Source of the DNA: an uncultured Candidatus Saccharibacteria bacterium
GTDB lineage: Bacteria; Patescibacteriota; Minisyncoccia; Phycocordibacterales; UBA12088
Direction: 5' to 3'
DNA length: 64,000 bases
Assembly: GCA_964567265.1 (NCBI GenBank)
Contig: CAZMLK010000001.1
Span: 395,723-459,722, forward strand
A program made the translations under genes and the position numbers. The notes under the pieces were generated by a model. The model did not search any database. It was not told where the DNA came from and was given only the letters and a program-made list of their open reading frames with translations. Numbering within the stretch: position 1 is the first letter of the stretch; each line of letters opens with the position of its first letter. Positions 42,259-61,198 of this stretch are shown in pieces.

Positions 42259-43944
42259 CTAGCCTTCAAGGTATTCGGGGGTGTGGACAGCCATCCAATC
42301 GAGCAGTTGGCGCATCACGTAGACGCCGCCGAGCGTGTTCGTGACTGGCCCTCGCTCCATGAGGACGATGAAGGCGTAGCGTGGATGCTCATATGGGAAA
42401 AAACCGGTTGCCCATGAGTTCACGTGCTGCTTGTCGCGTCCGAGCTGCGCGGTTCCGGTCTTCGAGGCGACATGGATGCTGTCCTTGTTGAGCCCGACGC
42501 CGGTGCCCATGAGCACTCCTTGCCGCATACCCTCCTGCACCACCTTGAAATCCTCTGCCGGTATGTCCACCTTCGTGCCGGTTTGCGTGGTCGAGGCGAT
42601 CAACGAGGGCGTGAGGAGCGTGCCTCCGTTCGCGATCGATGCGATTGCGCGGAGCATCTGGATCGGTGTCACCTGGAACCCATACTGCCCGATGACCGTG
42701 TTGTACGTGTCACCGACGCGCCAGTCTTCCCCGTCGAACATCTTCTTCTTCCATTCCGGATTCGGGATCGTTCCCGATTCCTCGCCCGGAAGCTGGATGC
42801 CGGTCGGCGACGCGATACCGAAGAGACGCGCGTACTTCTCAACGTTCGCGATGCCCATGCCCTGCTGGCCCGGGAAGCCGCCGCCGATCTCATAGAAATA
42901 CACATCCGAGGAGACGGCGATCGCATCTCGCATATCCACCCAGCCATGCGCCTTCCAGTCATTGAACCGGGAGGGCCTCGAAGGATCGTATGGATTCGGG
43001 ACCGTGATGTAGCCCGCCGAGTAGATCTGCTTCTCAGGCGAGATGACGCCCTCCTGGAGCGCCCCGAGCGCCATGAAGGGCTTCACGATAGATCCCGGCG
43101 TGTAGAGGCCGGAGACCATCCGGTCGAGGAAGGGCTTCCGGGTATCGCTCATGTATTCCTGGACCGCAGCACGGTCGTCAGCGCTCGACATGACGCTCGG
43201 CCGGTACTCAGGATAGCTCGTGAGCGCGATCAGCTCGCCTGTGCGGACATCCATGATGGCACCTGCGCCTCCTGTGAATGGCACCTGGTCGGCAAGCCCC
43301 TTGATGAATCCATAGAAGGCTTCTTCCACGCGCGCATCGATCGAGAGCGTTACATTGCCGCCGTCCCTGGGCGGCGTCAGCACGCTCTCGGAGTGGACCG
43401 CACCATGCGCGTCCACCTCGATCATGCGCTTGCCATTCTCTCCGGAAAGCTGGTCATTGAAGGAGCGTTCAGTGCCGGCTACACCCTTGTACTCGACTTC
43501 ATAGAATTTGCCGGATGAATCCTTCTTAGGAAGCGTGATGTATCCGAGGATATGGCCGAATCCGGCTGCATCGATATATGAGCGGCTCGCGAACGGCTCC
43601 GGCGTATCGCGCGTATTCCATGCGAGCTCCGTCCCACGCCGATCGTAGAGGACGCCACGGCGCGCGAACACTGTCGATTCCTCGAGCCGGTTCTGCTCGC
43701 TCCGTTCCTTGTACGTGCTTCCCTCGGCTATCTGGAGGATAGAGAGCCGGCCCACGAGCGCGAGGAGGATGAGGACGGCGCCGCTTCCGACGATGAGGAA
43801 CGCCTGCTTGCGGATCGGCGTCTCGAGCCGTCCTTCCATCTGGGCAGTATTGAATTCGGGAAGATTGCGGGAATCAAGAAAAATCTCGTCGGGATCGATC
43901 TCGACGACGCGCGTTCGTTTCTTGCTGAAGAATGGGATGCGCAT
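42259..43944 (-). CDS. mrdA: penicillin-binding protein 2 (elongation transpeptidase)
   Basis: N-terminal TM helix, then GSIVKP (SxxK), SSD (SxN-like) and KTGTAQ. Directly downstream of mreBCD. Confidence 0.9.
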   Translation of the reverse strand: MRIPFFSKKRTRVVEIDPDEIFLDSRNLPEFNTAQMEGRLETPIRKQAFLIVGSGAVLILLALVGRLSILQIAEGSTYKERSEQNRLEESTVFARRGVLYDRRGTELAWNTRDTPEPFASRSYIDAAGFGHILGYITLPKKDSSGKFYEVEYKGVAGTERSFNDQLSGENGKRMIEVDAHGAVHSESVLTPPRDGGNVTLSIDARVEEAFYGFIKGLADQVPFTGGAGAIMDVRTGELIALTSYPEYRPSVMSSADDRAAVQEYMSDTRKPFLDRMVSGLYTPGSIVKPFMALGALQEGVISPEKQIYSAGYITVPNPYDPSRPSRFNDWKAHGWVDMRDAIAVSSDVYFYEIGGGFPGQQGMGIANVEKYARLFGIASPTGIQLPGEESGTIPNPEWKKKMFDGEDWRVGDTYNTVIGQYGFQVTPIQMLRAIASIANGGTLLTPSLIASTTQTGTKVDIPAEDFKVVQEGMRQGVLMGTGVGLNKDSIHVASKTGTAQLGRDKQHVNSWATGFFPYEHPRYAFIVLMERGPVTNTLGGVYVMRQLLDWMAVHTPEYLEG

Positions 43945-44271: not shown

Positions 44272-45090
44272 TTACTGCGCGCTTGTCGAGGTCGCACCCG
44301 CGGGCGCGATTTCGACCGTACGGAGCTCGCGGATGTTGACGGGACTTTTCGCGAGCGCGGTCTCGAACGAATCAGCAGCCTTCGAGCGCAGCGCGCCGAC
44401 GAGCGCGACCAAGGAGCTCGTGATTCCAGGAAGCGCGATCGGAGAATTGGTAGCAGCGATCGTACCCCGCGGAAGCTGCACGATGAAATTCCCGCCGCCC
44501 TGCCCGATCAAGGAGACGGACACCGAGGTCGTCGCCTGGAGGATATCCGCGCTGGTGCTGACTCCGGGAGACGAATACAGCGTGACCCGCGCACGGCTCG
44601 GCCCCACCTCTTCGACCGTGCCGAGCGCGAGCGCGCCGTAGGCGTACACCTTGTCCCCTTTCCGGATGCCACTCTCCTGCCCCGCGTCGATGACGAGCGA
44701 ATCATACGGAATCTCGGGCGGCCGGAGCAGGATGCCCGCGCGGATGCGCGCCCTCTCGGGATTGCGTCCCGCGAATGCGCGCAGGGACTCGTTTTCAGCC
44801 TCAAGAAGTGTCATCGCGACGCTTTTCGCGTTTGCATCGCGGAGTTCCTGCTTCAGCGCGGCATTCTCGTCAACGAGCGCGCGCTTGGAGCGGAGGAGCT
44901 CGATGACGGTACCCGATGACGCGACCGTGCCCGATTCTATCGATGCGACCGGGCGGAGCACGCCGAACACGAGGTTCTCGAGGAACGCCGGCGGCTTCGC
45001 GAAGAAGAAAAGCGCAACGACCAAAAGCGCTCCCATCACTGCGAGCTTGTAGCGGCTGAATGCTGTTTTACGTTCCTGGAGAGAGCGCAT
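44272..45090 (-). CDS. mreC: rod shape-determining protein MreC
   Basis: N-terminal TM helix, coiled coil (LKQELRDANAK), and beta-barrel repeats (GIRKGD.V, GLIGQ-like). Position after mreB. Confidence 0.85.
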   Translation of the reverse strand: MRSLQERKTAFSRYKLAVMGALLVVALFFFAKPPAFLENLVFGVLRPVASIESGTVASSGTVIELLRSKRALVDENAALKQELRDANAKSVAMTLLEAENESLRAFAGRNPERARIRAGILLRPPEIPYDSLVIDAGQESGIRKGDKVYAYGALALGTVEEVGPSRARVTLYSSPGVSTSADILQATTSVSVSLIGQGGGNFIVQLPRGTIAATNSPIALPGITSSLVALVGALRSKAADSFETALAKSPVNIRELRTVEIAPAGATSTSAQ

Positions 45091-46141
45091 CTTCGCTTTC
45101 TATGAGCACGTCCGTATGCTGGTCGAGGGTTTCAATGATAACACCGGTTCCGCGCACGACGGAGGTCAACGGATCGTTCGAGCGGTACACCGGGATCTTG
45201 AGGATCGCCGTCAAAAATTCGGGCATGCCGCGGATGAGCGCGCCGCCGCCGACCAAGTGGATGCCGCGCTGCATCACGTCCGCCAGGACTTCAGGCGGCG
45301 TGGTCTCGAGGACCTCGCGGACGGATTCGACCAAGGTATCGATGGAATGGGAAATCGCTTCGCGGATATCGGCGTCTGTAATGACGACCTCACGCGGGAG
45401 GCCGGTCACGAGATCGCGGCCGCGTACGGTCGCTTCGATCGGCGCATCGCCCGGAGATACGGAACAAGCAGCAATCTTGAGCTCCTCCGAGGTCTTCTCG
45501 CCGATCAATATCTTGAATTCGCTCCGGATGTAGGAGGCGATGTCGGCATTCAGCTTGTCGCCCGCGACGCGGAGATTCTTCGCGCGCACGATGCCGGAAA
45601 GCGAGATGACGGCGATATCGGTCGTGCCGCCGCCGATGTCTATGATCATGCTGCCGATCGGCGCATGGATCGGCAGCTTGATGCCGATCGCGGCAGCCAT
45701 CGGCTCCTCGACGATGTAGACCTCGCGGGCGCCGGCATTCTTCGCTGCATCGCGGACCGCCCGCGTCTCGACGTTCGTGATGCCAGACGGCACGCCGATG
45801 ACGACGCGCGGGCCGAAGATCGTGCGGCGTCCTTCCTGCGCTTTGTTGAGGAGGTATGAAAGCATCTCTTCGGTGACCTCGAAGTCCGAGATCACGCCAT
45901 CAACGAGAGGGCGGACGGCCGTGATGTGGGTCGGCGTGCGGCCGAGCATGTCCTTCGCCTGCGCTCCGACGGCGACCACCTGGCCCGTCTTCTGGTTGAT
46001 GGCGACGACGGAGGGCTCATTGAGGACGATGCCCTTGCCGCGAACATACACGAGCGTGTTCGCCGTGCCGAGATCGATGCCGATGTCATTCGAGAAGAGG
46101 TGCGAGAACCTCCCGAACATTTTTTTGAGTCTTTCTACCAT
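45068..46141 (-). CDS. mreB: rod shape-determining protein MreB
   Basis: IGIDLGTANTLVYVRGKGIVLNEPSVVA, DIGGGTTD and GGGALIRG, the actin/MreB fold motifs. Confidence 0.95.
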   Translation of the reverse strand: MVERLKKMFGRFSHLFSNDIGIDLGTANTLVYVRGKGIVLNEPSVVAINQKTGQVVAVGAQAKDMLGRTPTHITAVRPLVDGVISDFEVTEEMLSYLLNKAQEGRRTIFGPRVVIGVPSGITNVETRAVRDAAKNAGAREVYIVEEPMAAAIGIKLPIHAPIGSMIIDIGGGTTDIAVISLSGIVRAKNLRVAGDKLNADIASYIRSEFKILIGEKTSEELKIAACSVSPGDAPIEATVRGRDLVTGLPREVVITDADIREAISHSIDTLVESVREVLETTPPEVLADVMQRGIHLVGGGALIRGMPEFLTAILKIPVYRSNDPLTSVVRGTGVIIETLDQHTDVLIESEDALSPGT

Positions 46142-48206: not shown

Positions 48207-49316
48207 TTAGAATAACCGGACGATATCCTGGTACGTAATAGCGGCCATGAGGACAAGAAGAAGGATAAGGCCGCCTGCATTGAGAAAGTTCGCAATCTTA
48301 GGGGAAATCGGAGTTCCTTTCACCGCCTCGATGAGGACGAAGAGGAGCCGGCCGCCGTCCAAAGCCGGGAATGGGAGCACGTTGATCACGGCCAGGTTCA
48401 GCGAGATGAATGCGGTGAAAGTGATCAGATAGACGAGGCCGAGGCGGGACGCATCGCCGACGAGCCCGACGATGCCGACGGGGCCGGTCACCTGCGAGAG
48501 ATCGGCCTTGAGGACGAATGCACTCTTGAAGAAGGTCACGAGGCCTGCCGCGACTTCATACGTCTTCTGTCCCGTCATGATCGCGCCTTCATAGAGCGCG
48601 CGCACCGGATTGTATTTCAAGGTTGCCGTGAGCGCCATCACGATACCGGCAGCGGCACGATCAGGCTCATCCTTGATGATGCCTTTTACCGGAGTCACGG
48701 TCAGGATTCCCGATTCATTGGCGCGTTCGTACGAAACGACCAACGGCAGGTTACCGTGGCTCGCGATGAAACGGAGGACGGAATCGGGACTAAGCGCGTT
48801 CCCTTCAAGCGACTCGGCGGAACCTGCCTCTATTTTTGAAATCACGTCACCCGGCTTGAGGCCTGCCTCGGATCCCGGCGCATCCGGAACGACTGCGACG
48901 ATCTCTACCTTCGCATCCGGAACGGTGTCACGGTCTTCAGGTGCGAGCGAGGTCGGCATGCCGATCATGAACCCGAGCGAAAATAGGAGCCACGCGAAGA
49001 GGATGTTGCCGATGATGCCTGCGAGGAGGATCAGCGCCTGGACCCATTTCGGCTTGTTCGGAAAACTCCGCGCGCTGTCGGGCCCGGCAAGTGACGCATC
49101 GTCAGGATCCTCGCCGAAGATCTTCACGTAGCCGCCGATCGGGAGGAGGTTGAGGACGTAGCGCGTCTCGCCCCGCTTGATACTCGCGACCTTCGGCGGG
49201 AAACCGAGCGCGAATTCATCGACGCGGACGCCGAGCTTCTTGGCGGTGATGAAATGCCCGAACTCGTGGACAAAGACCAGGGTGCCGAGCACGAGGAGGA
49301 AGAGGACTATGGACAT
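48207..49316 (-). CDS. rseP: RIP metalloprotease RseP (M50 site-2 protease) with PDZ domain
   Basis: VHEFGHFITAKK (HExxH), PDZ segment (GLKPGDVI), and NVLPFPALDGG. Confidence 0.9.
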   Translation of the reverse strand: MSIVLFLLVLGTLVFVHEFGHFITAKKLGVRVDEFALGFPPKVASIKRGETRYVLNLLPIGGYVKIFGEDPDDASLAGPDSARSFPNKPKWVQALILLAGIIGNILFAWLLFSLGFMIGMPTSLAPEDRDTVPDAKVEIVAVVPDAPGSEAGLKPGDVISKIEAGSAESLEGNALSPDSVLRFIASHGNLPLVVSYERANESGILTVTPVKGIIKDEPDRAAAGIVMALTATLKYNPVRALYEGAIMTGQKTYEVAAGLVTFFKSAFVLKADLSQVTGPVGIVGLVGDASRLGLVYLITFTAFISLNLAVINVLPFPALDGGRLLFVLIEAVKGTPISPKIANFLNAGGLILLLVLMAAITYQDIVRLF

Positions 49317-51938: not shown

Positions 51939-51968
51939 ACCCCGCACATCCATGCGGGGTTCTTTCTT
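51939..51968 (+). terminator. rho-independent terminator
   Basis: ACCCCGCA-catcca-TGCGGGGT followed by TCTTTCTTAT. Confidence 0.75.
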
Positions 51969-54777
51969 ATATGATTTTCGGAGGCGATACTGGAAGCGTC
52001 GACTCCTTGCGGTAGCGCGCGAGGATATCTTCCTCCACGAGCGAGCGCGCCTTTCCATATTTGAGATATGAGAGCTGCTTCAGCGCTTCCGCATTCTCAG
52101 GATTCCCCGCCTTCGGTGCCATTGTCCTGATATTGAACGGCTTTGCCGGCCTCCCTTCAGCGAGAATCTTGAGGTACGCGTTCCGGTTGTCGATATTCAT
52201 GATGTCGCTCGCAGCGAAGGTCGGCGCGAACTGCGGCTCGAAGAATTTCGCATCCTCGGCGCCGACGCGGAACACCGCCATCGATCCGACGTTGCCGAAG
52301 ATCGAATCCCGGATGCCCTCCTGGAGCTGCGCGATGAACTGGTGCGCCACCGTGAGCCCGAGCTTGTACTTGCGCGCTTCGGAAAGGATGGTCGAGATGG
52401 AATCGGTGGTGACATTCTGGAATTCGTCGATATAGAGATAGAACGGCGGCATCTCCTTCCCACTGCCGAACGCGTCCACGCGCGAGAGCGCTGCCATGAG
52501 GATCTTGCCGACCAGGATGAGGCCGAGGAGATTCGCGTTGATGTCGCCGAGCCGGCCCTTCGAGAGGTTCACGAGGAGGATCTTCTTCGAATCCATCACC
52601 TCGCGGAAATTGAACGCGGATTTTTCCTGCGCGATGATCGGGCGCATGTACTCGTTCGCGGTGAAGACATCGAACTTGTTCGTGATATACGGCACGATGT
52701 TCGCGAGCGATGCTTCCCCCTGTGCCTTCGTGGCGATCTCCTGCCAGAACTGGAGGACGACCGGGTTCTTGCAGTGTGAGAGCTTGAGCGCGCGATACTT
52801 CGCGTCCGCGAGGACGCGGGACACATCGAGCAAGGTCATGCCGCTCTCGGGGTGCTCGAGGACGAGCAGCGTCGCGTTGCGGAAATACTGCTCGAATGCA
52901 GGGCCCATCGACTCGGGAGAGCCGGCGTACAACTTCTTGAAGATGCTGAAAAGCTCATTGACCACGAAGGTCTTCTGTTCCGGGAACCGGGGATCGTATT
53001 CGAGCATGTTGAGGCCCATCACGCGCTCCATGTATGCGGGATCGAAGTAGATGACGTCTTCCGCGCGCTCGGGCGGGATCGCGGCGAGGATATCCTGCAC
53101 ATCGCTACCATGCGGATCGATGAAACAGACGCCTGCGCCCTCCTCTATGTCCTGGATGATCATGTTCTTGAGGAGCGTCGTCTTACCGGTACCCGTCTGC
53201 CCGATCACGTAGAAATGTCGGAGGCGATCCTCTGGCGCGAGATACGCTTTCGTTTCCGCATTACGGAATGAATTGATGCCGAGAAGCGTCCCCGTTGCTG
53301 AGAGCCCGAGCGGCGGCGGCGCGTCAGCGGATTTCGACTGCCGGAATTCGGGCGAGGATTTCACGACGCCTGTCGGGAAGTGGAGCACAGTCGCAAGCTC
53401 GCGGAGCGAAAACGGGAACGATTCGGCGGCGCCGAAATCACGGAAGGTGAAGCGTGTCAGGAGCGCACGAAGCGCGCCGCCCGTCGCCCGTACGAATTCG
53501 AAGCGATTGCCATCCGCATGATGGAATTGATGGAAGCTCGATTCGATGTCGCGAAGGATGCCTTCAGCGCGCGCCTGGTCAGTCGCGGATACCACGATGC
53601 GGACATTGACCGGCACAATGAAGGATTCCCTCTTTTTCCTGATCGCTTCAAGGGCGACCTTGTCGACAATCTTTTCCTCAGGCGCCTCTTTTGCTTCAGC
53701 CGGCTTCGAGGAGAGGAGTGCGCCTTTGAGCGCGCCGCCGATCGCGAATGCGGCACTTCCGAGAAGGCTCGATTCGACTTCGCGATACACGATCTTTGGC
53801 TTCTCACCCTTCTCGATACGCTTCTCGATGCGGAGGTAGCGCCCGAGATAATCGTCACGGCCAGGTCGGATCACGAACTGGATCGACGCACCTGCTCCCT
53901 CCTTCTCGATTTTCGAGAACGCATTCAAAAGCACTGAGAGCGGATCGACATCAAATGCATCGTAGGTTTTTATCGGATAGATCGGGAGTTCTGCAAGGCG
54001 CGCGGTCGAAGCCAGTGTCACGCCGTTCTCTACGAAGATGTTGTAGTCGCCTTTTTCCTCGCGGAGATGCGCATGCGGGAAGAGCGACAAGAGCTGCTTC
54101 TCGAACAGCTCTGCCTTGGTGGTCGGCACCGATACATAGAAGACGATTTCCTGGCTTGCTGATGAAACGGCGACTTCGAAGACGAAGACCTCGCCGGTGT
54201 CATTCTCGCGAGATCCCGTGCCGAAGAGTCCCGAATAGAATTGTTCCATCACAGAGACCAGCTCCTTGATGGTCTTCCGCTTCGCGCTTCCGGCATCCTC
54301 ATCCTGATTGATGGAAGGCAGTGTCACTTCGTACAAGGTCATGTTGAGCTCGCGCCAGACCGGCTCATTTTCCTTCACCCCCGGCACTGGATATCCGGCA
54401 TGGATGTATTGCACGAGGACGCGGTGGAAATCGTCGGCGATATGCGGGCTATCCATGCGGTCAGCGACCGTGAGCGCATTCTTGAGTCCCTTGTCGCGCA
54501 TGACGCCAAGAAGCTCGCCCATGATGGCGTCGTCCTTCTCAGGCGGCAGGTCGAGGATGATGTCATCCACTTGCTCGGCAGTGAGGATGCGTTCCTGTGG
54601 GAGCACTGATTCCGAAAGCGCGCGTCGGTATTCCTCGATATGCGCGCTTGTTGCCGCTTCCTTGGAGACCGGATAGCCGATTTCTGCCATGGCACGCTCC
54701 TTCTCCGCGATCTGGCCGCGCAGATACTGAATCTCCTCCTCAGGAGAGGAGAATTTCTCGTTCACTGGGAATTCCAT
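51967..54777 (-). CDS. VirD4/TraD-like (type IV coupling protein family) P-loop NTPase with a ~480-aa soluble N-terminal domain and no TM segments
   Basis: HFYVIGQTGTGKTTLL (Walker A), CFIDPHGSD, FYLYIDEFQNV (Walker B), RKYKLGLTVAHQFIAQL. These resemble the TrwB/TraD/VirD4 ATPase core. The N-terminal half has no motif I recognise. Confidence 0.75.
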   Translation of the reverse strand: MEFPVNEKFSSPEEEIQYLRGQIAEKERAMAEIGYPVSKEAATSAHIEEYRRALSESVLPQERILTAEQVDDIILDLPPEKDDAIMGELLGVMRDKGLKNALTVADRMDSPHIADDFHRVLVQYIHAGYPVPGVKENEPVWRELNMTLYEVTLPSINQDEDAGSAKRKTIKELVSVMEQFYSGLFGTGSRENDTGEVFVFEVAVSSASQEIVFYVSVPTTKAELFEKQLLSLFPHAHLREEKGDYNIFVENGVTLASTARLAELPIYPIKTYDAFDVDPLSVLLNAFSKIEKEGAGASIQFVIRPGRDDYLGRYLRIEKRIEKGEKPKIVYREVESSLLGSAAFAIGGALKGALLSSKPAEAKEAPEEKIVDKVALEAIRKKRESFIVPVNVRIVVSATDQARAEGILRDIESSFHQFHHADGNRFEFVRATGGALRALLTRFTFRDFGAAESFPFSLRELATVLHFPTGVVKSSPEFRQSKSADAPPPLGLSATGTLLGINSFRNAETKAYLAPEDRLRHFYVIGQTGTGKTTLLKNMIIQDIEEGAGVCFIDPHGSDVQDILAAIPPERAEDVIYFDPAYMERVMGLNMLEYDPRFPEQKTFVVNELFSIFKKLYAGSPESMGPAFEQYFRNATLLVLEHPESGMTLLDVSRVLADAKYRALKLSHCKNPVVLQFWQEIATKAQGEASLANIVPYITNKFDVFTANEYMRPIIAQEKSAFNFREVMDSKKILLVNLSKGRLGDINANLLGLILVGKILMAALSRVDAFGSGKEMPPFYLYIDEFQNVTTDSISTILSEARKYKLGLTVAHQFIAQLQEGIRDSIFGNVGSMAVFRVGAEDAKFFEPQFAPTFAASDIMNIDNRNAYLKILAEGRPAKPFNIRTMAPKAGNPENAEALKQLSYLKYGKARSLVEEDILARYRKESTLPVSPPKII

Positions 54778-55618: not shown

Positions 55619-56632
55619 CTACCGCTTCGCGATGATGCTCTTCTTGTAGACGTCGAGATGGTTGAGCGCGATGCCGGTCCCCTTCACCACGCAATACGGG
55701 GCCTCTTTCGCAAGAACCGCCTTCACGCCCGTGCGACGGAGCACGAGTTCCGGGAAATTGCGAAGCTGCGAGGTGCCGCCGGTCATGATGATGCCCTTGT
55801 CGATGATGTCGGAGGCAAGCTCGGGCGGCGTCTCCTGGAGCACATCCTTGATCGCCTTGATCATTTCCCGCAAGTCGCGCGCGGTCGCTTTCACGATCTC
55901 ATTCGTCTTCACTTCTGCAGTGCGCGGAAGGCCGGTCAAGAGATCCCGGCCGCGGATCGACATGATGAGTTCCTCTTCAAGAGGGACGGCCGAGCCGACC
56001 TCGATCTTTATGCGCTCAGCGGTCTTGTCGCCGATCGCGAGATTGAAGGTCTTCTTCACATAATCGGTGATCGCATGATCGAGGCGGTTCCCGGCGCATT
56101 TCACGGACGTCGAGGCGACGATGCCGCCGAGCGAGATCACGGCGACGTCGATCGTGCCGCCGCCGATGTCGACGATCATATGCCCACGCGGCTCATGGAT
56201 CGGAATGCCGGCGCCGATTGCCGCAAGAATCGGTTCCTTGACCACGTACGCATTCTTCGCACCCGCGTTCACTGCGGCTTCGACGACGGCGCGGCGCTCG
56301 GTCGAAGTGACGCCCGCTGGAACCGAGATCATCACGTCCGGGCGGAACAGCGTCCACTTCCCCATCGATTTGCGGATATAGTAGCGGAGCATCGCTTCGG
56401 TGACGCGATAATCGGCGATGACGCCATCTTTCATCGGGCGGTACGCGATGATCGATTCCGGAGTGCGTCCGATCATCTCCTTCGCGTCGTTGCCGACCGC
56501 GAGGATCTTGTTGTCGCTGACGGAGACGGCGACCACCGACGGCTCATTGAGCACGATGCCCGCGCCCGGCACGAAGACGAGTGTCGTCGTGGTCCCGAGG
56601 TCGATCCCGATTTTCTTGGTGAAAAATGACAT
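55619..56632 (-). CDS. second MreB-like actin-family protein (paralog)
   Basis: KIGIDLGTTTTLVFVPGAGIVLNEPSVVAV, DIGGGTID and MTGGTSQLRN. Start at the internal ATG of track ORF 55619..56719. Confidence 0.85.
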   Translation of the reverse strand: MSFFTKKIGIDLGTTTTLVFVPGAGIVLNEPSVVAVSVSDNKILAVGNDAKEMIGRTPESIIAYRPMKDGVIADYRVTEAMLRYYIRKSMGKWTLFRPDVMISVPAGVTSTERRAVVEAAVNAGAKNAYVVKEPILAAIGAGIPIHEPRGHMIVDIGGGTIDVAVISLGGIVASTSVKCAGNRLDHAITDYVKKTFNLAIGDKTAERIKIEVGSAVPLEEELIMSIRGRDLLTGLPRTAEVKTNEIVKATARDLREMIKAIKDVLQETPPELASDIIDKGIIMTGGTSQLRNFPELVLRRTGVKAVLAKEAPYCVVKGTGIALNHLDVYKKSIIAKR

Positions 56633-56677
56633 GGTGTCGCCTAGGCAGTATACCTGCTTGCGCTTTGCTGGTCGTTG

Positions 56678-56706
56678 TTGACATATTGGACTTAATATGT
56701 TTTTAT
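56678..56706 (+). promoter_or_regulatory. sigma70-like promoter of the 56737 gene
   Basis: TTGACA-17 nt-TTTTAT, then AGGAGG 7 nt before the TTG start. Confidence 0.4.
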
Positions 56707-56736
56707 ATCTCTCAGACAAACACAGGAGGACCTCCC

Positions 56737-57033
56737 TTGCCTAGAAATCTTGTTGCGTACATAGCAATAATCGGGGATCCGGCTCGCAAAACCGTTCGGA
56801 AGCATCAATTACCAGATACAGATACCTACTATGCTGAGGATCTCGTCGGAGAGATATTCCGTATCCCTCTTACGACCGCTGAATATGTAGTCAGTGTTGG
56901 TAATGCGCAGATGAACTATTGGCAATCCAGTCTTCACAAGACTGGAGAATTATGTTCAGGCATCCCGTGGGATATTATTGCGAGGGAAATTCTTTTGTTT
57001 CGCGACCCGAAAAATAGACCCGAGCGCCTATAA
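56737..57033 (+). CDS. hypothetical small protein (98 aa, TTG start)
   Basis: AGGAGG RBS and a terminator homologous to that of the next gene. AT-richer. No recognised motif. Confidence 0.45.
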   Translation: MPRNLVAYIAIIGDPARKTVRKHQLPDTDTYYAEDLVGEIFRIPLTTAEYVVSVGNAQMNYWQSSLHKTGELCSGIPWDIIAREILLFRDPKNRPERL

Positions 57034-57076
57034 CTCCGACGGAAGCTCCGGCTTTCGGTCGGGGTTTCTGTTTTTG
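57034..57076 (+). terminator. rho-independent terminator (repeat family copy 1)
   Basis: TAACTCCGACGGAAGCTCCGGCTTTCGGTCGGGGTTTCTGTTTTT. Confidence 0.7.
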
Positions 57077-57146: not shown

Positions 57147-57680
57147 TTGAGACCACGTCTGCAAATAGTAGATATAGGGAATCGGACGCACGCGACGATC
57201 ATAGCGGAAGCACGACGATTGTCGGTAGGCGTGGAGATGCGCGGCAAGGAGCGGACAGCATTTGTTGGCATCGAATTCGATCTCGGAACGCTTACGATGC
57301 TTTCTCCCTTGTTCCGGCACATGGACACTCTCGGGGACGAGCCGAGAGTTTATGTCTTCAATGAGCACCTTGAAGCACCAGATCTCTGCGTCATTTTTTT
57401 GACGCACACGACTGGCACCAAACTCTTAGAGGAGATCATGGGTCGAAACGACCTTGCAGGGTTTCAATCACCCCCAGATACGACAATCTTTGCGACCGCG
57501 GAGGCAAACATCCCGATGGCGGGGTCACTTGATGACTTCCTCGCAATCTATGCTGGCAGAGGATTTGCGAAAGTACTGATCCTCGAATCACTTGATCGGG
57601 TGTCCGAGCGCGTACCCTTCTACACGTTCCCTACAGCGCCCGTATCCAGACGCAACCCCCTGGATGAAATGAAAACCTAA
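57147..57680 (+). CDS. hypothetical protein (177 aa, TTG start)
   Basis: GGAGAGGAG RBS and a terminator. No recognised motif. Confidence 0.5.
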   Translation: MRPRLQIVDIGNRTHATIIAEARRLSVGVEMRGKERTAFVGIEFDLGTLTMLSPLFRHMDTLGDEPRVYVFNEHLEAPDLCVIFLTHTTGTKLLEEIMGRNDLAGFQSPPDTTIFATAEANIPMAGSLDDFLAIYAGRGFAKVLILESLDRVSERVPFYTFPTAPVSRRNPLDEMKT

Positions 57681-57719
57681 CCCCGACGAAGCCCCGGCTT
57701 CGTCGGGGTTTCTCTTTTC
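57681..57719. terminator. bidirectional terminator (repeat family copy 2)
   Basis: CCCCGACGAAGC-cccg-GCTTCGTCGGGG followed by TTTCTCTTTT. Confidence 0.8.
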
Positions 57720-57724
57720 AAGAG

Positions 57725-58000
57725 CTATTCAATCGGGTCGACCGTGTCCACAAGCGCGGCTTCAAGGCTTACGATGCGCTCCCACGCATCCTTGTTACTC
57801 GCGGAGAGCGCGAGCATCTTCGCGGCGAAGGTCGCCTGGATGAACGGGATCACCCATGGATCCTTCTCGAACAGGTCCTTGAGGTGATCGAGCGTCTCGG
57901 CATCCTGTCCTGATTTGATCAACTCGAAGAGCATCTCCTTCTCATCCTCAAGGAGCGGGGATGTATCAATTGATTTCTTGATAGAGTCCAGCGTTTTCAT
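57725..58000 (-). CDS. hypothetical helical protein, module gene B copy 1 (91 aa)
   Basis: Paralog of 58746..59015. Shared motifs are IKKSID.S.LL..EKE, a central PW, and AAK.LA. Confidence 0.5.
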   Translation of the reverse strand: MKTLDSIKKSIDTSPLLEDEKEMLFELIKSGQDAETLDHLKDLFEKDPWVIPFIQATFAAKMLALSASNKDAWERIVSLEAALVDTVDPIE

Positions 58001-58006
58001 ACAGTG

Positions 58007-58336
58007 CTATTGGAAATCAGCCGCGTTGATTTCGAGAGATTGCTCGCCTCCGAGCTTGGCAGCGACGAGCGATACCGGGTTCCCGTCCGCGTCGACGACG
58101 TAAGTAATCGTGACTTCGCGCCCCCCGTACGTGACGACACGCTCCGCGGTCTCTCTGCCGAACTCGAATCCACTGCTCCGCTCTGCTGCAGGAGCCGTGA
58201 GCGCCCGAAGGAGCGAGGTGAGTGCTGCGCGTTCAGGCTCGCCTTCATGCAACCCGAGCACTTCTGCTTCCGCGACCTCAAGCATGGCGGGGTCGAATTC
58301 GTTTGAATATGGGATTCCCTCTTTCATAGCGGACAT
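58007..58336 (-). CDS. hypothetical protein, module gene A copy 1 (109 aa)
   Basis: Paralog of 59029..59508. Shares the N-terminal M.EGIP and a C-terminal V..T......D..G...V......L....AA.F pattern. Preceded by a TTGCAG-N17-TAGTAT promoter. Confidence 0.5.
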   Translation of the reverse strand: MSAMKEGIPYSNEFDPAMLEVAEAEVLGLHEGEPERAALTSLLRALTAPAAERSSGFEFGRETAERVVTYGGREVTITYVVDADGNPVSLVAAKLGGEQSLEINAADFQ

Positions 58337-58353
58337 AGTACCAGTATCTCGGA

Positions 58354-58382
58354 ATACTAGCGAACCGGATTTTCACCTGCAA
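58354..58382 (-). promoter_or_regulatory. sigma70-like promoter of the A1-B1 module
   Basis: Minus strand: TTGCAG-17 nt-TAGTAT. Confidence 0.5.
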
Positions 58383-58407
58383 GGTTCATGAAAAAAGCGC
58401 GGCCGGA

Positions 58408-58436
58408 TTGACAGCACTCTTGAAAAACGTTTTTAT
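58408..58436 (+). promoter_or_regulatory. sigma70-like promoter of the 58469 gene
   Basis: TTGACA-17 nt-TTTTAT, then GGAGGAGG before the ATG. Confidence 0.45.
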
Positions 58437-58468
58437 CGCATATGGAACTTGTACGGAGGAGGTGTGTA

Positions 58469-58687
58469 ATGCGAATCCACGAACTGCCGGTGCCGACAAC
58501 TCCACATGTAGACACTATTCCCTCATCGGATTGTGGTCCTGGCGACGACGAAGGCTTGCTACGCCGGGATCCGAGCCAGTGCGATCATCTCTGGATACCA
58601 ACCACCGACGACGGCACGGAAGGCTGCCCGTTCTGCAGTTCTCAGAGGCGTGGAGAGCCGGTGATGGAAGTGCCCGACGAGAGATAG
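58469..58687 (+). CDS. hypothetical small Cys-rich (zinc-ribbon-like) protein (72 aa)
   Basis: GGAGGAGG RBS. Cysteines at SDCGPG, SQCDH and GCPFC. Terminator downstream. Confidence 0.45.
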   Translation: MRIHELPVPTTPHVDTIPSSDCGPGDDEGLLRRDPSQCDHLWIPTTDDGTEGCPFCSSQRRGEPVMEVPDER

Positions 58688-58706
58688 AGAGTATTCGAGG
58701 ACCATT

Positions 58707-58737
58707 CACCGCTCCCAGGGGGCGGTGTTTTCTTTTT
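58707..58737 (+). terminator. rho-independent terminator
   Basis: CACCGC-tcccagggg-GCGGTG followed by TTTTCTTTTT. Confidence 0.7.
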
Positions 58738-58745
58738 GGAAAATG

Positions 58746-59015
58746 TTATTCGATGCTCGCGACCAGGTTCCGCTCGAATTCGAGGATGCGCATGAGCGCG
58801 TCGGAGTTCTCGTTCTCGATCGCAAGCGACTTCGCGGCGAGCGTCATGAACAGGGTCGAGACCATCCACGGATGCGCTTCGAGAAGTGCGGCGAGATCGG
58901 CGAGATACGTCTCTTCCAAATCGCCTTCAGTGAGCGCGACCAGCAAGGCCTCCTTCTCGTGCGGCAGGAGCTGCGACTCGTCTATGCTTTTCTTGATGCG
59001 TGCCTTTGGTTCCAT
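58746..59015 (-). CDS. hypothetical helical protein, module gene B copy 2 (89 aa)
   Basis: MEPKARIKKSIDESQLLPHEKEALL ... HPWMV ... LAAKSLA. Start could instead be 59045. Confidence 0.5.
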   Translation of the reverse strand: MEPKARIKKSIDESQLLPHEKEALLVALTEGDLEETYLADLAALLEAHPWMVSTLFMTLAAKSLAIENENSDALMRILEFERNLVASIE

Positions 59016-59028
59016 GCAAATGTTGCCC

Positions 59029-59508
59029 TTAGACGAATGCAGCAAGATCGAGGACCATGTCCGGCATACCCACGCGCTTCACGACAATCTTCTCCGTCGC
59101 TTCGCCGCCGTCATCGGAAGCGAGCACGGTATGCTCGACCTGCGTTCCATCTTGATATTCCTGCTCGAGCGCGCTGTGGCGCTGATTGCCACCACCAAAC
59201 GCTTTCCTCAGTACGGGCGCGAGATTGATGCGGGTTGTCCTTCCGGGAATGTAATTCGGATTCTCCTTGTAATGCGTCACTGCTGGGCGGGATTCGAACG
59301 AGGATTTATATTCCACATGCATGCCGGTGCAGGCGCTGGTCATGAGCGCGAGCGCGCCAGCTGCCGCCAGCTTCAGCTTTGAATTGCCATGTTCCGCGAG
59401 ATTGGCCTCGCCTTCTGAAAAGTGCGCGAACGATTCCGTGAACGGACCTCTCTCGACATCAGACACTTCCGCTTCAATCGGTATTTCGTTTGGGATCCCT
59501 TCGTGCAT
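59029..59508 (-). CDS. hypothetical protein, module gene A copy 2 (159 aa) with an internal lipobox-like segment
   Basis: MHEGIPNEIP ... KLKLAAAGALALMTSAC ... VLDLAAFV. Starts 13 nt after the murA stop, with CATAAT overlapping that stop. Confidence 0.5.
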   Translation of the reverse strand: MHEGIPNEIPIEAEVSDVERGPFTESFAHFSEGEANLAEHGNSKLKLAAAGALALMTSACTGMHVEYKSSFESRPAVTHYKENPNYIPGRTTRINLAPVLRKAFGGGNQRHSALEQEYQDGTQVEHTVLASDDGGEATEKIVVKRVGMPDMVLDLAAFV

Positions 59509-59521
59509 GATGTGTTCTCAA

Positions 59522-60826
59522 TTATGCGCACATCCTCGTGCGTTCTATATGAACGCCGATCGATCGGAGGCGTGCCTCGATGTTCGCGTATCCTCGGTCG
59601 ATGAAGTACGCGTTATTAATAGTCGAATTCCCTTTCGCTATGATACCGGCGATCAGGAACGCGAGTCCAGCGCGGATGTCCGGGCCGTCGACTTCCCTTC
59701 CCTTAAGGAGCGTTGGGCCCTTCACGGTCGCGCGGTGCGCATCCCATACCTTTATGTCGGCGCCCATGTGGACCAGATCCTGCGCGTAGTTGAGGCGATT
59801 CTCGTAGATCGTCTCGAACACCAGCCCCTCGCCGCTCGACTGCGTGAGGAACACCGTCATCGGCGCCTGGAGGTCGGTCGGGAATCCCGGATACTCATGC
59901 GTTTTCAAATCGAAGGAAGTAAAGTCCGAATTCGCAATCTTCCCGTTCCCGCTAATCTGAATGAAGTCGGCACCAATCTCCATCGGGACGCTGGCACTCT
60001 GGAGTGTCCGAATCACGCTCCACGCGTGATTCGGATTGCAGTTCGAAATCCGAAGATTGTCGGCCGCAAGCGCACCGAGGACGAGGAAGCTCCCCAGCTC
60101 AATGCGATCAGGAATAATGCGGTACTGCTTTCCCTCCGATTTCAGAAGCGCGCCGCCTTCGATCTCGATGGTCGGCGAACCAGCGCCGGTGATCTTGGCG
60201 CCACAGGAGTTCAGAAATTCAGCGAGGTCGGCAATCTCCGGCTCCATCGCCGCATTCCGAAGCGTGGTCTTCCCTTCTGCGAGCACTGCGGCAAGCATGA
60301 GCGCTTCGGTTGCGGTTACGCTCATTACCGTAAAAAATATATCAGCTCCGCGGAGCTTGCCGTCTTTCGCGGCAATCTCGTAGTGAGAATCATGTGTGGT
60401 AATCGTCGCACCCATCGCTTTGTACGCGGACAGGAAGAGATCGATCGGCCGCGGACCGATGACACACCCGCCTGGATGTGGAAAAGAGACTTTGCCGAAG
60501 CGGCCAAGAAGGGGTCCGGTCAAGATCACAGAAGCGCGCATGCGCTTGGCGGCGTCCGCATCGATGACGGTCTCGAACAAATCCTCCGTTGCAACCTCGA
60601 TGGTATCTCCCGATTGCGTGGTTCCTGCGCCGAGCTTTTCAAGAATCTCTCCCATCCGCTTCACATCCTCGATTACGGGAACATTCGTGAGTGTGAGCGT
60701 GTCCGAAAAAACGATTGCTGAAGCGAGCGCCGGAAGTACCGAATTCTTTGCGCCGCCGATCACCACTTCACCGGATAGGGTCTTCTCACCACCGAGGCCA
60801 GTGATATGGAATGATTCTTTGTTCAT
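59522..60826 (-). CDS. murA: UDP-N-acetylglucosamine 1-carboxyvinyltransferase
   Basis: GGAKNSVLP, the catalytic-loop region (PGGCVIGPRPIDL), and DIRAGLAFLIAG. Start at the internal ATG (MNKESFHITG) of track ORF 59522..60922. Confidence 0.9.
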   Translation of the reverse strand: MNKESFHITGLGGEKTLSGEVVIGGAKNSVLPALASAIVFSDTLTLTNVPVIEDVKRMGEILEKLGAGTTQSGDTIEVATEDLFETVIDADAAKRMRASVILTGPLLGRFGKVSFPHPGGCVIGPRPIDLFLSAYKAMGATITTHDSHYEIAAKDGKLRGADIFFTVMSVTATEALMLAAVLAEGKTTLRNAAMEPEIADLAEFLNSCGAKITGAGSPTIEIEGGALLKSEGKQYRIIPDRIELGSFLVLGALAADNLRISNCNPNHAWSVIRTLQSASVPMEIGADFIQISGNGKIANSDFTSFDLKTHEYPGFPTDLQAPMTVFLTQSSGEGLVFETIYENRLNYAQDLVHMGADIKVWDAHRATVKGPTLLKGREVDGPDIRAGLAFLIAGIIAKGNSTINNAYFIDRGYANIEARLRSIGVHIERTRMCA

Positions 60827-61198
60827 GTCGGAACAATTGTACGGGCAGGCGAGACTTGGCACAAATCGCCCGCCGGTTGGGCCCTTGGCCCAACCGGCGG
60901 GCGTCCCTTGCACTATCCCCACACTTGTTGCCTAAACCGCTCTATGCTACATTGACGACGTAGCAGACAACGGAGGTATGCTCATTATGTTGAGCTTGCG
61001 GTCGACTTATCGTGCCGATACCCACCTCCCCTCGAAGGAGACCGATTTCGTCCAGGAAGCCCTGGATATTCCACCGAGAGACCCGCTCTTCGATCATCCA
61101 ATCGGCGATTAACGCTAATCGCCCCACGCCGACCCGCACTCGTGCGGGTCTCACCTAGAGGGTGAACGGGCTCTGTTTCTCCCCGTTCAAAGCCTTCG

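Follow-up and report, generated by a model that had tools for sequence, protein, structure and literature searches.

The window analysed here is the whole 64-kb stretch (64,000 nucleotides, nt) of contig CAZMLK010000001.1 from an uncultured Candidatus Saccharibacteria bacterium, and coordinates refer to this window throughout. Between murA and mreB it carries two small gene pairs, A1-B1 and A2-B2, in which all four genes lie on the − strand and each A gene is closely followed by its B gene. Judged by its conservation at the sequence level, A-B is a genuine gene pair that has been conserved but not described to date, and we found no account of it in the literature. The locus comprises:

59522-60922, − strand: murA, upstream of A2
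59029-59508, − strand: A2, encoding a predicted pre-(lipo)protein of 159 amino acids (aa); open reading frame (ORF) starting 13 nt past the murA stop
58746-59015, − strand: B2, encoding an 89-aa acidic helical protein with an isoelectric point (pI) of 4.6; ORF starting 13 nt past the A2 stop
58707-58727, + strand only: terminator-like hairpin with a T-run, ending the cysteine (Cys)-rich gene; it does not make an obvious terminator for B2
58469-58687, + strand: gene for a Cys-rich, acidic 72-aa protein, divergent from A1-B1; recognised by its ORF, Shine-Dalgarno sequence and conservation
58335-58343, − strand: putative extended −10 promoter element TGgTACTAT, read from the sequence
58007-58327, − strand: A1, an ORF of 106 aa from the second ATG (the ORF of the initial annotation reaches 58336)
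57725-58000, − strand: B1, encoding a 91-aa acidic five-helix protein, pI 4.4; ORF starting 6 nt past the A1 stop
57679-57710, both strands: bidirectional terminator-like hairpin with a 14-bp stem and T-runs on both sides, closing A1-B1 and the convergent 177-aa ORF; kept in relatives L002-L004
57147-57680, + strand: 177-aa ORF, convergent with B1
55619-56719, − strand: mreB, downstream of the module

Close relatives of this region (L001-L005) were retrieved by exact-protein look-up. L001 is 99.6% identical to the window region, L002-L004 are ~85% identical with an unchanged gene order from murA to mreB, and L005 (~70% identical) is a 1.1-kb contig holding only the Cys-rich gene, A1 and B1. 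Ratios of nonsynonymous to synonymous substitution rates (dN/dS; Nei-Gojobori, window versus relatives) were 0.14 for A2 (against L003), 0.07 for B2, 0.05 and 0.095 for A1 (against L003 and L005, respectively), 0.013 and 0.073 for B1, 0.26 for the Cys-rich gene, and 0.11 for the 177-aa ORF. With values of 0.01–0.26, all four A and B ORFs, the Cys-rich ORF and the 177-aa ORF are constrained protein-coding genes. The ORFs and coordinates of the initial annotation stand as it gave them, and its worry that they might not be conserved as coding in relatives is answered by this purifying selection. The tight spacing it described within the pairs was also recovered (6 nt in A1-B1 and 13 nt in A2-B2), but the overlap it allowed for is absent with the ATG start of B2, which is the start that aligns with homologs.

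The B and A proteins of the window

Significant full-length similarity identifies B1 and B2 as paralogs, as had been proposed by eye: BLASTP aligned them with 39% identity over 83 aa (E = 3e-13), and their Smith-Waterman score of 139, compared with 28 ± 5 for shuffled sequences (z = 21), was reached by none of 2000 shuffles. Every one of the motifs first listed for them (IKKSID.S.LL..EKE, PW, AAK.LA and E..LV) is present, and the central motif reads P-W-[VMLI]-[IV]-[PS]. An exhaustive hidden Markov model (HMM) search of 1.84 billion representatives returned 28 proteins at E ≤ 1e-3, of which 27 are genuine B members, all full-length and aligning end to end (68–103 aa, typically ~88 aa); the other (P0018, 2164 aa) is a eukaryotic BRCA2 that matches the profile weakly through its BRC repeats and was discarded as a false positive. 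Taken by these alignments, B is a small unannotated protein family that is acidic throughout (pI 4.1–5.5) and has no signal peptide. An AlphaFold2 (AF2) model of B1 (predicted local distance difference test score, pLDDT, 92; predicted template modelling score, pTM, 0.79) consists of helices at residues 2–12, 18–29, 34–46, 50–66 and 70–87.

Searches for relatives of B beyond this family were negative. B1 and B2 gave nothing above threshold in Pfam, NCBIfam, PADLOC or PHROGs, 29 B members had no Pfam match, and no specific match to the B model was found in the Protein Data Bank (PDB). A PDB sequence-profile search with B, A and the Cys-rich protein yielded weak helical or compositional matches only, a word-indexed search with B returned orthologs only, and scans of metagenomes and of viral sequences found no further A-B loci. 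The only match in a profile scan of genome contigs (L006, 3273-3836) is a Bacteroidetes membrane protein sharing the IKKSID peptide by chance, and was rejected as a B relative.

A2 begins with an acidic presequence of 43 aa (MHEGIP...), which is followed by a signal-peptide-like segment, KLKLAAAGALALMTSAC, containing Cys60, and then by a beta-rich mature part of ~100 aa. Its basic n-region and hydrophobic h-region, SKLKLAAAGALALMTSA, agree with the 7–22-residue h-region expected of lipoproteins. The Cys does not have the expected N-terminal position, since residue 60 lies outside the usual ~15–35, and compared with the lipobox pattern [LVI][ASTVI][GAS]C the sequence T-S-A-C has an atypical Thr at −3. 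The only in-frame alternative start (ATG, GTG or TTG) before the hydrophobic segment is a GTG at codon 15, which would leave a 29-aa extension. Against L003, the signal segment has accumulated 0 nonsynonymous changes in 17 codons, and dN/dS is 0.24 for the presequence and 0.09 for the mature part. In an AF2 model built from a six-sequence alignment, a helix at residues 43–61 and C-terminal strands are predicted (pLDDT 44), and the syntenic counterpart of A2 in a distant lineage, L014, has an identical architecture. The internal lipobox-like segment that had been picked out in A2 is real, and it is the key feature of the A family.

For A1 and A2, the paralogy first proposed has no pairwise support and draws on position and on profile similarity of moderate level. 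BLASTP gave E = 1.6, a shuffle test gave z = 0.8 with 395 of 2000 shuffles scoring as well, and comparison of the two ortholog profiles with hhalign aligned the first 8 residues only (M.EGIP). When the A1 profile was compared with a profile of seven other A proteins (hhalign; five more family members added), the match reached E = 1.6e-5 (probability 79%, 97 columns). In a separate decoy test, 1–3 of 1000 shuffled versions of A1 scored as high as A1 itself (p ~0.001–0.003). A leave-lineage-out HMM of the presequence, run over 2471 ORFs, placed A1 and A2 at only E = 0.4–6, which is not significant. A1 keeps the M.EGIP, EFDP and LG.HEG motifs and a C-terminal beta hairpin domain, and on the basis of position, architecture, short shared motifs and the moderate profile score it is probably a diverged A paralog. 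The duplicated two-gene module thus stands as far as B1 and B2 are paralogs and both pairs are under purifying selection, whereas its A half is not significant pairwise.

The Ala/Leu segment of A1 is degenerate (...LRALTAPAA), with the L-[LM]-T-[AS] motif still there, and ~35 residues of the mature part have been lost. Lacking the Cys, and with an n-region that is acidic and an Arg within the hydrophobic stretch, A1 is probably not exported. In the NCBI record with these exact proteins, A1 is annotated as a 106-aa protein beginning at the second ATG, and this codon (58327) is most likely the true start. The element TGgTACTAT ends 8 nt upstream of it, within a 26-nt block, GAGATACTGGTACTATGTCCGCTATG, that L002-L004 and even L005, only 70% identical overall, share without a mismatch. 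Since an extended −10 element so close to the start codon leaves only 8 nt, A1-B1 is probably a separate leaderless transcript with its own promoter.

As a separate observation, the 5' two-thirds of A1 (58111-58336) and the 3' end of murA (59540-59700) are ~99% identical between the window and L002-L004, compared with ~85% for the remainder of the 3-kb region, and the synonymous rate (dS) of A1 is 0.155 versus 0.75–0.78 for B1 and B2. This pattern suggests either mosaic recombination between lineages or an extra constraint at the DNA or RNA level.

The order of events in the duplication can be read from L014, where a single A-B pair occurs in the order priA, murA, A, B, an unrelated small gene, mreB. 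Because L014 has this single module and its syntenic B is 48% identical to B2, compared with 39% between B1 and B2, the comparison identifies A2-B2, in the murA operon, as the ancestral copy and A1-B1 as an old, asymmetrically diverged duplicate. The Cys-rich gene accompanies A1-B1, being present in L005 and absent from L014. A DNA repeat search detected faint residual similarity between the two copies, which argues against recent duplication or gene conversion between them, and no further A or B copies were found in the 64-kb window or the retrieved loci.

Partner genes of B across lineages

Every B gene with a readable contig was examined for its partner, giving 11 contexts (the window twice, L014, L007, L012, L015, L016, L021, L020, L018 and L009). 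The gene abutting B has an acidic N-terminal extension of 24–105 aa in 11 of 11 contexts, and in 9 of them the extension is followed by an h-region of 12–17 residues, a length that indicates a signal peptide and not a transmembrane segment. A lipobox Cys is present in five contexts (A2, L014, L016, L007 and L012) and an AQA site in two (L015 and L009), stop-to-start gaps within the pairs are 1–25 nt, and the B proteins concerned are mutually only 20–48% identical. By these gene arrangements, the A-B pairing recurs in about ten distant uncultivated bacteria. The partners outside the window are:

L014: 163 aa; MNMEGPQIE..., acidic 39 aa, then ...AALVAALGGLSAC
L007: 142 aa; ...KRPKSARGIAFAAALSALTASGC
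L012: at least 267 aa; ...ERFRGKAGRVAQCLVLGTQLAIGLSGC
L016: 127 aa as called in ENA; ...ERAGARRMALAAALVGSTGAC
L015: 142 aa; ...RGPKIVAMVTALGLLTAQA/E
L021: 139 aa; MEGLP... ...LFRATAAGLALLTASG
L020: 375 aa with an EF-hand domain; 55-aa extension, ...RFGRKTKFAVGGLLLMTSLAMGY
L009: 525 aa, downstream of B; 105-aa acidic extension, ...KIRFRKSVQALLLIATATVALGKAAQA/N
L018: 103 aa; acidic N-terminus with EFNP...ILGEH (as in A1), hydrophobic segment absent

In its general form, A has an acidic presequence of ~25–45 aa that opens with M-E-G-x-P and also contains the recurrent motifs F-x-P and E-x-x-x-L; a basic n-region comes next, then the h-region, which closes with L-[LM]-T-[AS] and is succeeded by a Cys or an A-x-A site. 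The L014 and L015 partners are 43% identical over residues 6–77 (E = 2e-7), and this similarity, together with the dN/dS of the A2 presequence, indicates that the presequence is conserved as protein. The mature domains vary from a small beta domain with or without two Cys to a 300-aa EF-hand-containing domain, one of >200 aa (called helical by eye from the sequence), and one of 400 aa. Given this heterogeneity, the common element of the partners is the N-terminal region. Eight distant A proteins had no Pfam match, and A1 and A2 gave nothing above threshold in Pfam, NCBIfam, PADLOC or PHROGs.

Possible role of the pair

Among the functions suggested in the initial annotation, a secreted substrate with its chaperone or adaptor fits best, because A has a signal or lipobox segment behind a presequence, B is small, acidic, helical and cytoplasmic, and the N-terminal region alone is shared by the partners; the toxin/immunity option is disfavoured. 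A small, acidic, helical protein encoded beside its client is the classic profile of dedicated export chaperones (FliS, FlgN, FliT, VirE1, NapD, TorD), and B would resemble an export chaperone in each of these respects. Tentatively, and in part by analogy, we propose that B is a dedicated cytoplasmic chaperone or targeting factor that binds the presequence or signal region of A, a reading that is plausible but falls short of an even chance. A and B would be made in roughly equal amounts via translational coupling, a suggestion based on the short gaps and on Shine-Dalgarno sequences that, by eye, are not recognisable before B1 and amount to a weak AAGGG before B2. In the cytoplasm, B would then bind nascent A at its presequence and signal region, since that region alone is common to all partners, and would serve as a dedicated holdase, targeting factor or quality-control factor before A is exported by Sec and cleaved by signal peptidase. 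A1-B1 might be a subfunctionalised version of this complex that stays in the cytoplasm.

Where tested, none of the defining features of the twin-arginine translocation (Tat), extended-signal, or flagellar, type III (T3SS) and type IV secretion system (T4SS) chaperone systems is found in A-B. The redox enzyme maturation proteins (REMPs) of the Tat pathway (NapD, TorD, DmsD) resemble B in that a small cytoplasmic protein (in NapD, as in B, of ~90 aa) is encoded beside an exported client whose N-terminal signal region would be its target. However, the A proteins lack the twin-arginine motif S/T-R-R-x-F-L-K, with n-regions such as KLKL, RSRFENTAR, KRPKSAR and RFRGK and with RR only in L016 (ARRM); B has no sequence or fold match to TorD or NapD and is all-helical, whereas NapD has a ferredoxin-type fold; and the A clients are small (lipo)proteins, not cofactor enzymes. 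A conserved N-terminal extension before a Sec-type signal peptide is also shared with accessory-Sec substrates and with autotransporters carrying an extended signal peptide region (ESPR). GspB-type accessory-Sec substrates have a ~90-aa signal peptide, and the cytosolic proteins Asp1-3 handle the preprotein. The A extension differs in being acidic, 24–105 aa long and built on other motifs, with no KxYKxGKxW or ESPR, its cargo is tiny, and no SecA2/SecY2 or Asp genes were seen near A-B. Chaperones of the flagellar, T3SS and T4SS type (FliS, FlgN, FliT, VirE1) recognise substrates without Sec signals, at C-terminal or internal regions, and B matches them only below threshold and in the manner of helical bundles in general; flagellar and T3SS genes are absent at A-B, and the VirD4-like gene nearby shows no linkage to the pair in the majority of contexts.

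Canonical lipoproteins, the substrates of Lgt and LspA, resemble A2 and the L014, L016, L007 and L012 partners, in which a basic n-region and a short h-region lead up to a Cys preceded by small residues (LSAC, LSGC, ASGC, TGAC, TSAC). Unlike theirs, the signal peptide of A is internal, with Cys at 47–60 and not 15–35, and several members have AXA or no Cys. The best recurrent structural and sequence match to B (residues ~4–48) was the X domain of the paramyxovirus phosphoprotein, a three-helix bundle that binds a helix of the disordered N-tail, and it might suggest that B binds an induced helix of a disordered acidic partner. With Foldseek E > 1, half of B covered and no plausible evolutionary link, the likeness is an analogy only. 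Several other candidates were put aside: analogies with Tat-REMP, spanin and T4SS-propilin systems were abandoned because motifs or architecture did not agree, and a WXG100/ESAT-6-like identity for B was rejected as its central motif is P-W-[VMLI]-[IV]-[PS] and not W-x-G, its five helices do not form a hairpin, and it has no Pfam match.

Several observations weigh against the chaperone reading. The A2 model is poor (pLDDT 44), the putative A2 lipobox has its Cys60 far outside the 15–35 window and Thr at −3, and the A proteins of the window are linked only weakly to distant A proteins (E = 0.4–6, leave-lineage-out). B and the presequence are both acidic, so that binding would need the basic n-region together with the h-region, or hydrophobic faces. 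Neither A1 nor the A-like protein of L018 has a functional signal peptide, yet both have kept their B partner; the role of the pair therefore cannot be export alone. Finally, B subfamilies correlate with mature-domain type in our own grouping of B sequences against their partners, which weakens the case for B following the presequence instead of the cargo.

The same architecture could also describe a membrane-tethered signalling pair, in which A sits with its N-terminus inside, as an uncleaved signal anchor or a post-cleavage remnant, and its acidic tail sequesters B until cleavage by signal peptidase or RseP sets the tail or B free and so links a cytoplasmic response to an event at the envelope. 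Regulated proteolysis of anti-sigma factors and pheromones derived from lipoprotein signal peptides would be the analogues. A has the topology of single-pass anti-sigma factors (cytoplasmic N-tail, one hydrophobic segment, variable outside domain), an M50 (RseP-type) site-2 protease gene lies ~9 kb off in the window (48207-49316, −) and ~2.8 kb off in L021 (4901-5761), and the neighbourhood in both the window and L014 is one of cell-wall genes (murA, mreB and that of penicillin-binding protein 2, PBP2). We nonetheless consider a signalling pair unlikely, given that h-regions of 12–17 residues ending in a lipobox or AXA site are typical of cleaved signal peptides and not of anchors, and that B is strongly acidic, with no helix-turn-helix and no similarity to sigma or regulator families. 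The M50 gene is moreover a housekeeping gene whose proximity is probably due to chance, and the neighbourhoods of other family members are unrelated.

If A were instead a secreted or lipid-anchored toxin and B its cytoplasmic immunity protein or antitoxin, the tight coupling, the small acidic helical second gene and the local duplication would all be accounted for; in size and charge B is reminiscent of colicin-type immunity proteins, and a RelB/ParE-type pair adjoins A-B in L021. Yet Pfam, NCBIfam, PADLOC and PHROGs gave no toxin, antitoxin, immunity or defence match, and B is conserved while the exported domain of its partner changes, opposite to what polymorphic toxins show. Two lineages carry the cassette within the murA operon at syntenic chromosomal positions, relatives were not found on viral contigs, and strong purifying selection on both genes differs from an arms-race pattern, making this option highly improbable. 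It is also very unlikely, in our estimate, that the genes are unrelated co-transcribed neighbours, with the A family an architectural coincidence and A1 and A2 not homologous. Such a coincidence would agree with the lack of pairwise significance between A1 and A2 and with the scores of the window A proteins against distant presequences (E = 0.4–6), which acidic B proteins match, pointing to composition effects. It would leave unexplained the adjacency in 11 of 11 contexts despite B identities of only 20–48%, with a long acidic N-extension every time, the hhalign match of A1 to the family (E = 1.6e-5, 97 columns), the significant pairwise links among distant A proteins, presequence included, and the shared short motifs (M.EG.P, FxP, E...L and L[LM]T[AS]).

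An extension of the chaperone reading, speculative and rather unlikely, is that presequence and B together define a dedicated and hitherto unrecognised route by which small-genome uncultivated bacteria handle some of their Sec-exported (lipo)proteins, with B as a signal- or presequence-recognition factor. The cleaved presequence peptide of ~60 aa might then act in the cytoplasm (e.g., in export-coupled signalling via B), and A1-B1 would be a domesticated intracellular derivative. If B does recognise the presequence, it would be a new example of signal peptides handled in a client-specific way, distinct from the Tat and accessory-Sec paradigms, in bacteria where envelope biogenesis has hardly been studied, and would explain small lipoproteins whose signal peptides standard predictors would miss (lipobox Cys at 47–60). 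At present, A-B is a conserved hypothetical-protein pair with an inferred mechanism, and the analysis defines two unannotated protein families by a simple diagnostic architecture and corrects the local annotation at the A1 start and at a probably spurious 159-aa antisense ORF in relatives.

Flanking genes and wider neighbourhood

The opposite-strand gene between the two pairs, initially described as encoding a zinc ribbon, is real, as supported by its Shine-Dalgarno sequence GGAGGAGG, its terminator, its orthologs in L003 and L005, and its being called by NCBI as well. The zinc ribbon itself is not established, because the protein (DCG...C.HLW...CPFC) has one CxxC (CPFC) and two lone conserved Cys, where two CxxC-type knuckles ~10–30 residues apart are needed; metal binding via the four Cys is possible. 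The protein has no Pfam, NCBIfam or PDB match and nothing above threshold in PADLOC or PHROGs. A promoter-like site, TTGACA-17-TTTTAT (58391-58445, +), is conserved upstream (TTGTAT in L005) and is divergent from the predicted A1 promoter, both lying in an intergenic region of ~130 bp. Antisense ORFs of 159 aa (L002 1914-2393, L003 2311-2790, L004 645-1124) or 48 aa (L001 2170-2316) called over this gene are likely spurious, since the 72-aa gene on the + strand is favoured by its conservation, Shine-Dalgarno sequence and terminator and by the NCBI annotation.

The 177-aa ORF is kept in L002-L004 (81% aa identity) and has no match in Pfam, NCBIfam, PADLOC or PHROGs; an ORF of the same length at the analogous place in L014 is, by eye, unrelated to it. 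The terminator hairpin beside it (57678-57718) recurs partially at 57031-57074 (GTCGGGGTTTCT.TTTT), 84–94% identical and 644 nt apart, between the 177-aa ORF and mreB, and may be a repeated terminator or an element resembling repetitive extragenic palindromic (REP) sequences.

Further from the module, the window contains two full-length MreB paralogs within 11 kb (45068-46141 and 55619-56719, both −), with a PBP2-type transpeptidase nearby (42259-43944, −). The M50 protease would be relevant to the fate of a cleaved signal peptide of 60 aa. A 936-aa protein encoded 3 kb from the module (51967-54777, −) has weak matches to VirD4/TraG/TrwB coupling proteins and HerA-type ATPases. In L014, a 920-aa DUF87/DUF8128 gene lies downstream of mreB, beyond a 177-aa ORF, and in L018 four T4SS_pilin genes lie 2.5 kb from the A-B pair. 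VirD4-like, DUF87 and T4SS_pilin genes near A-B possibly constitute a recurrent neighbourhood.

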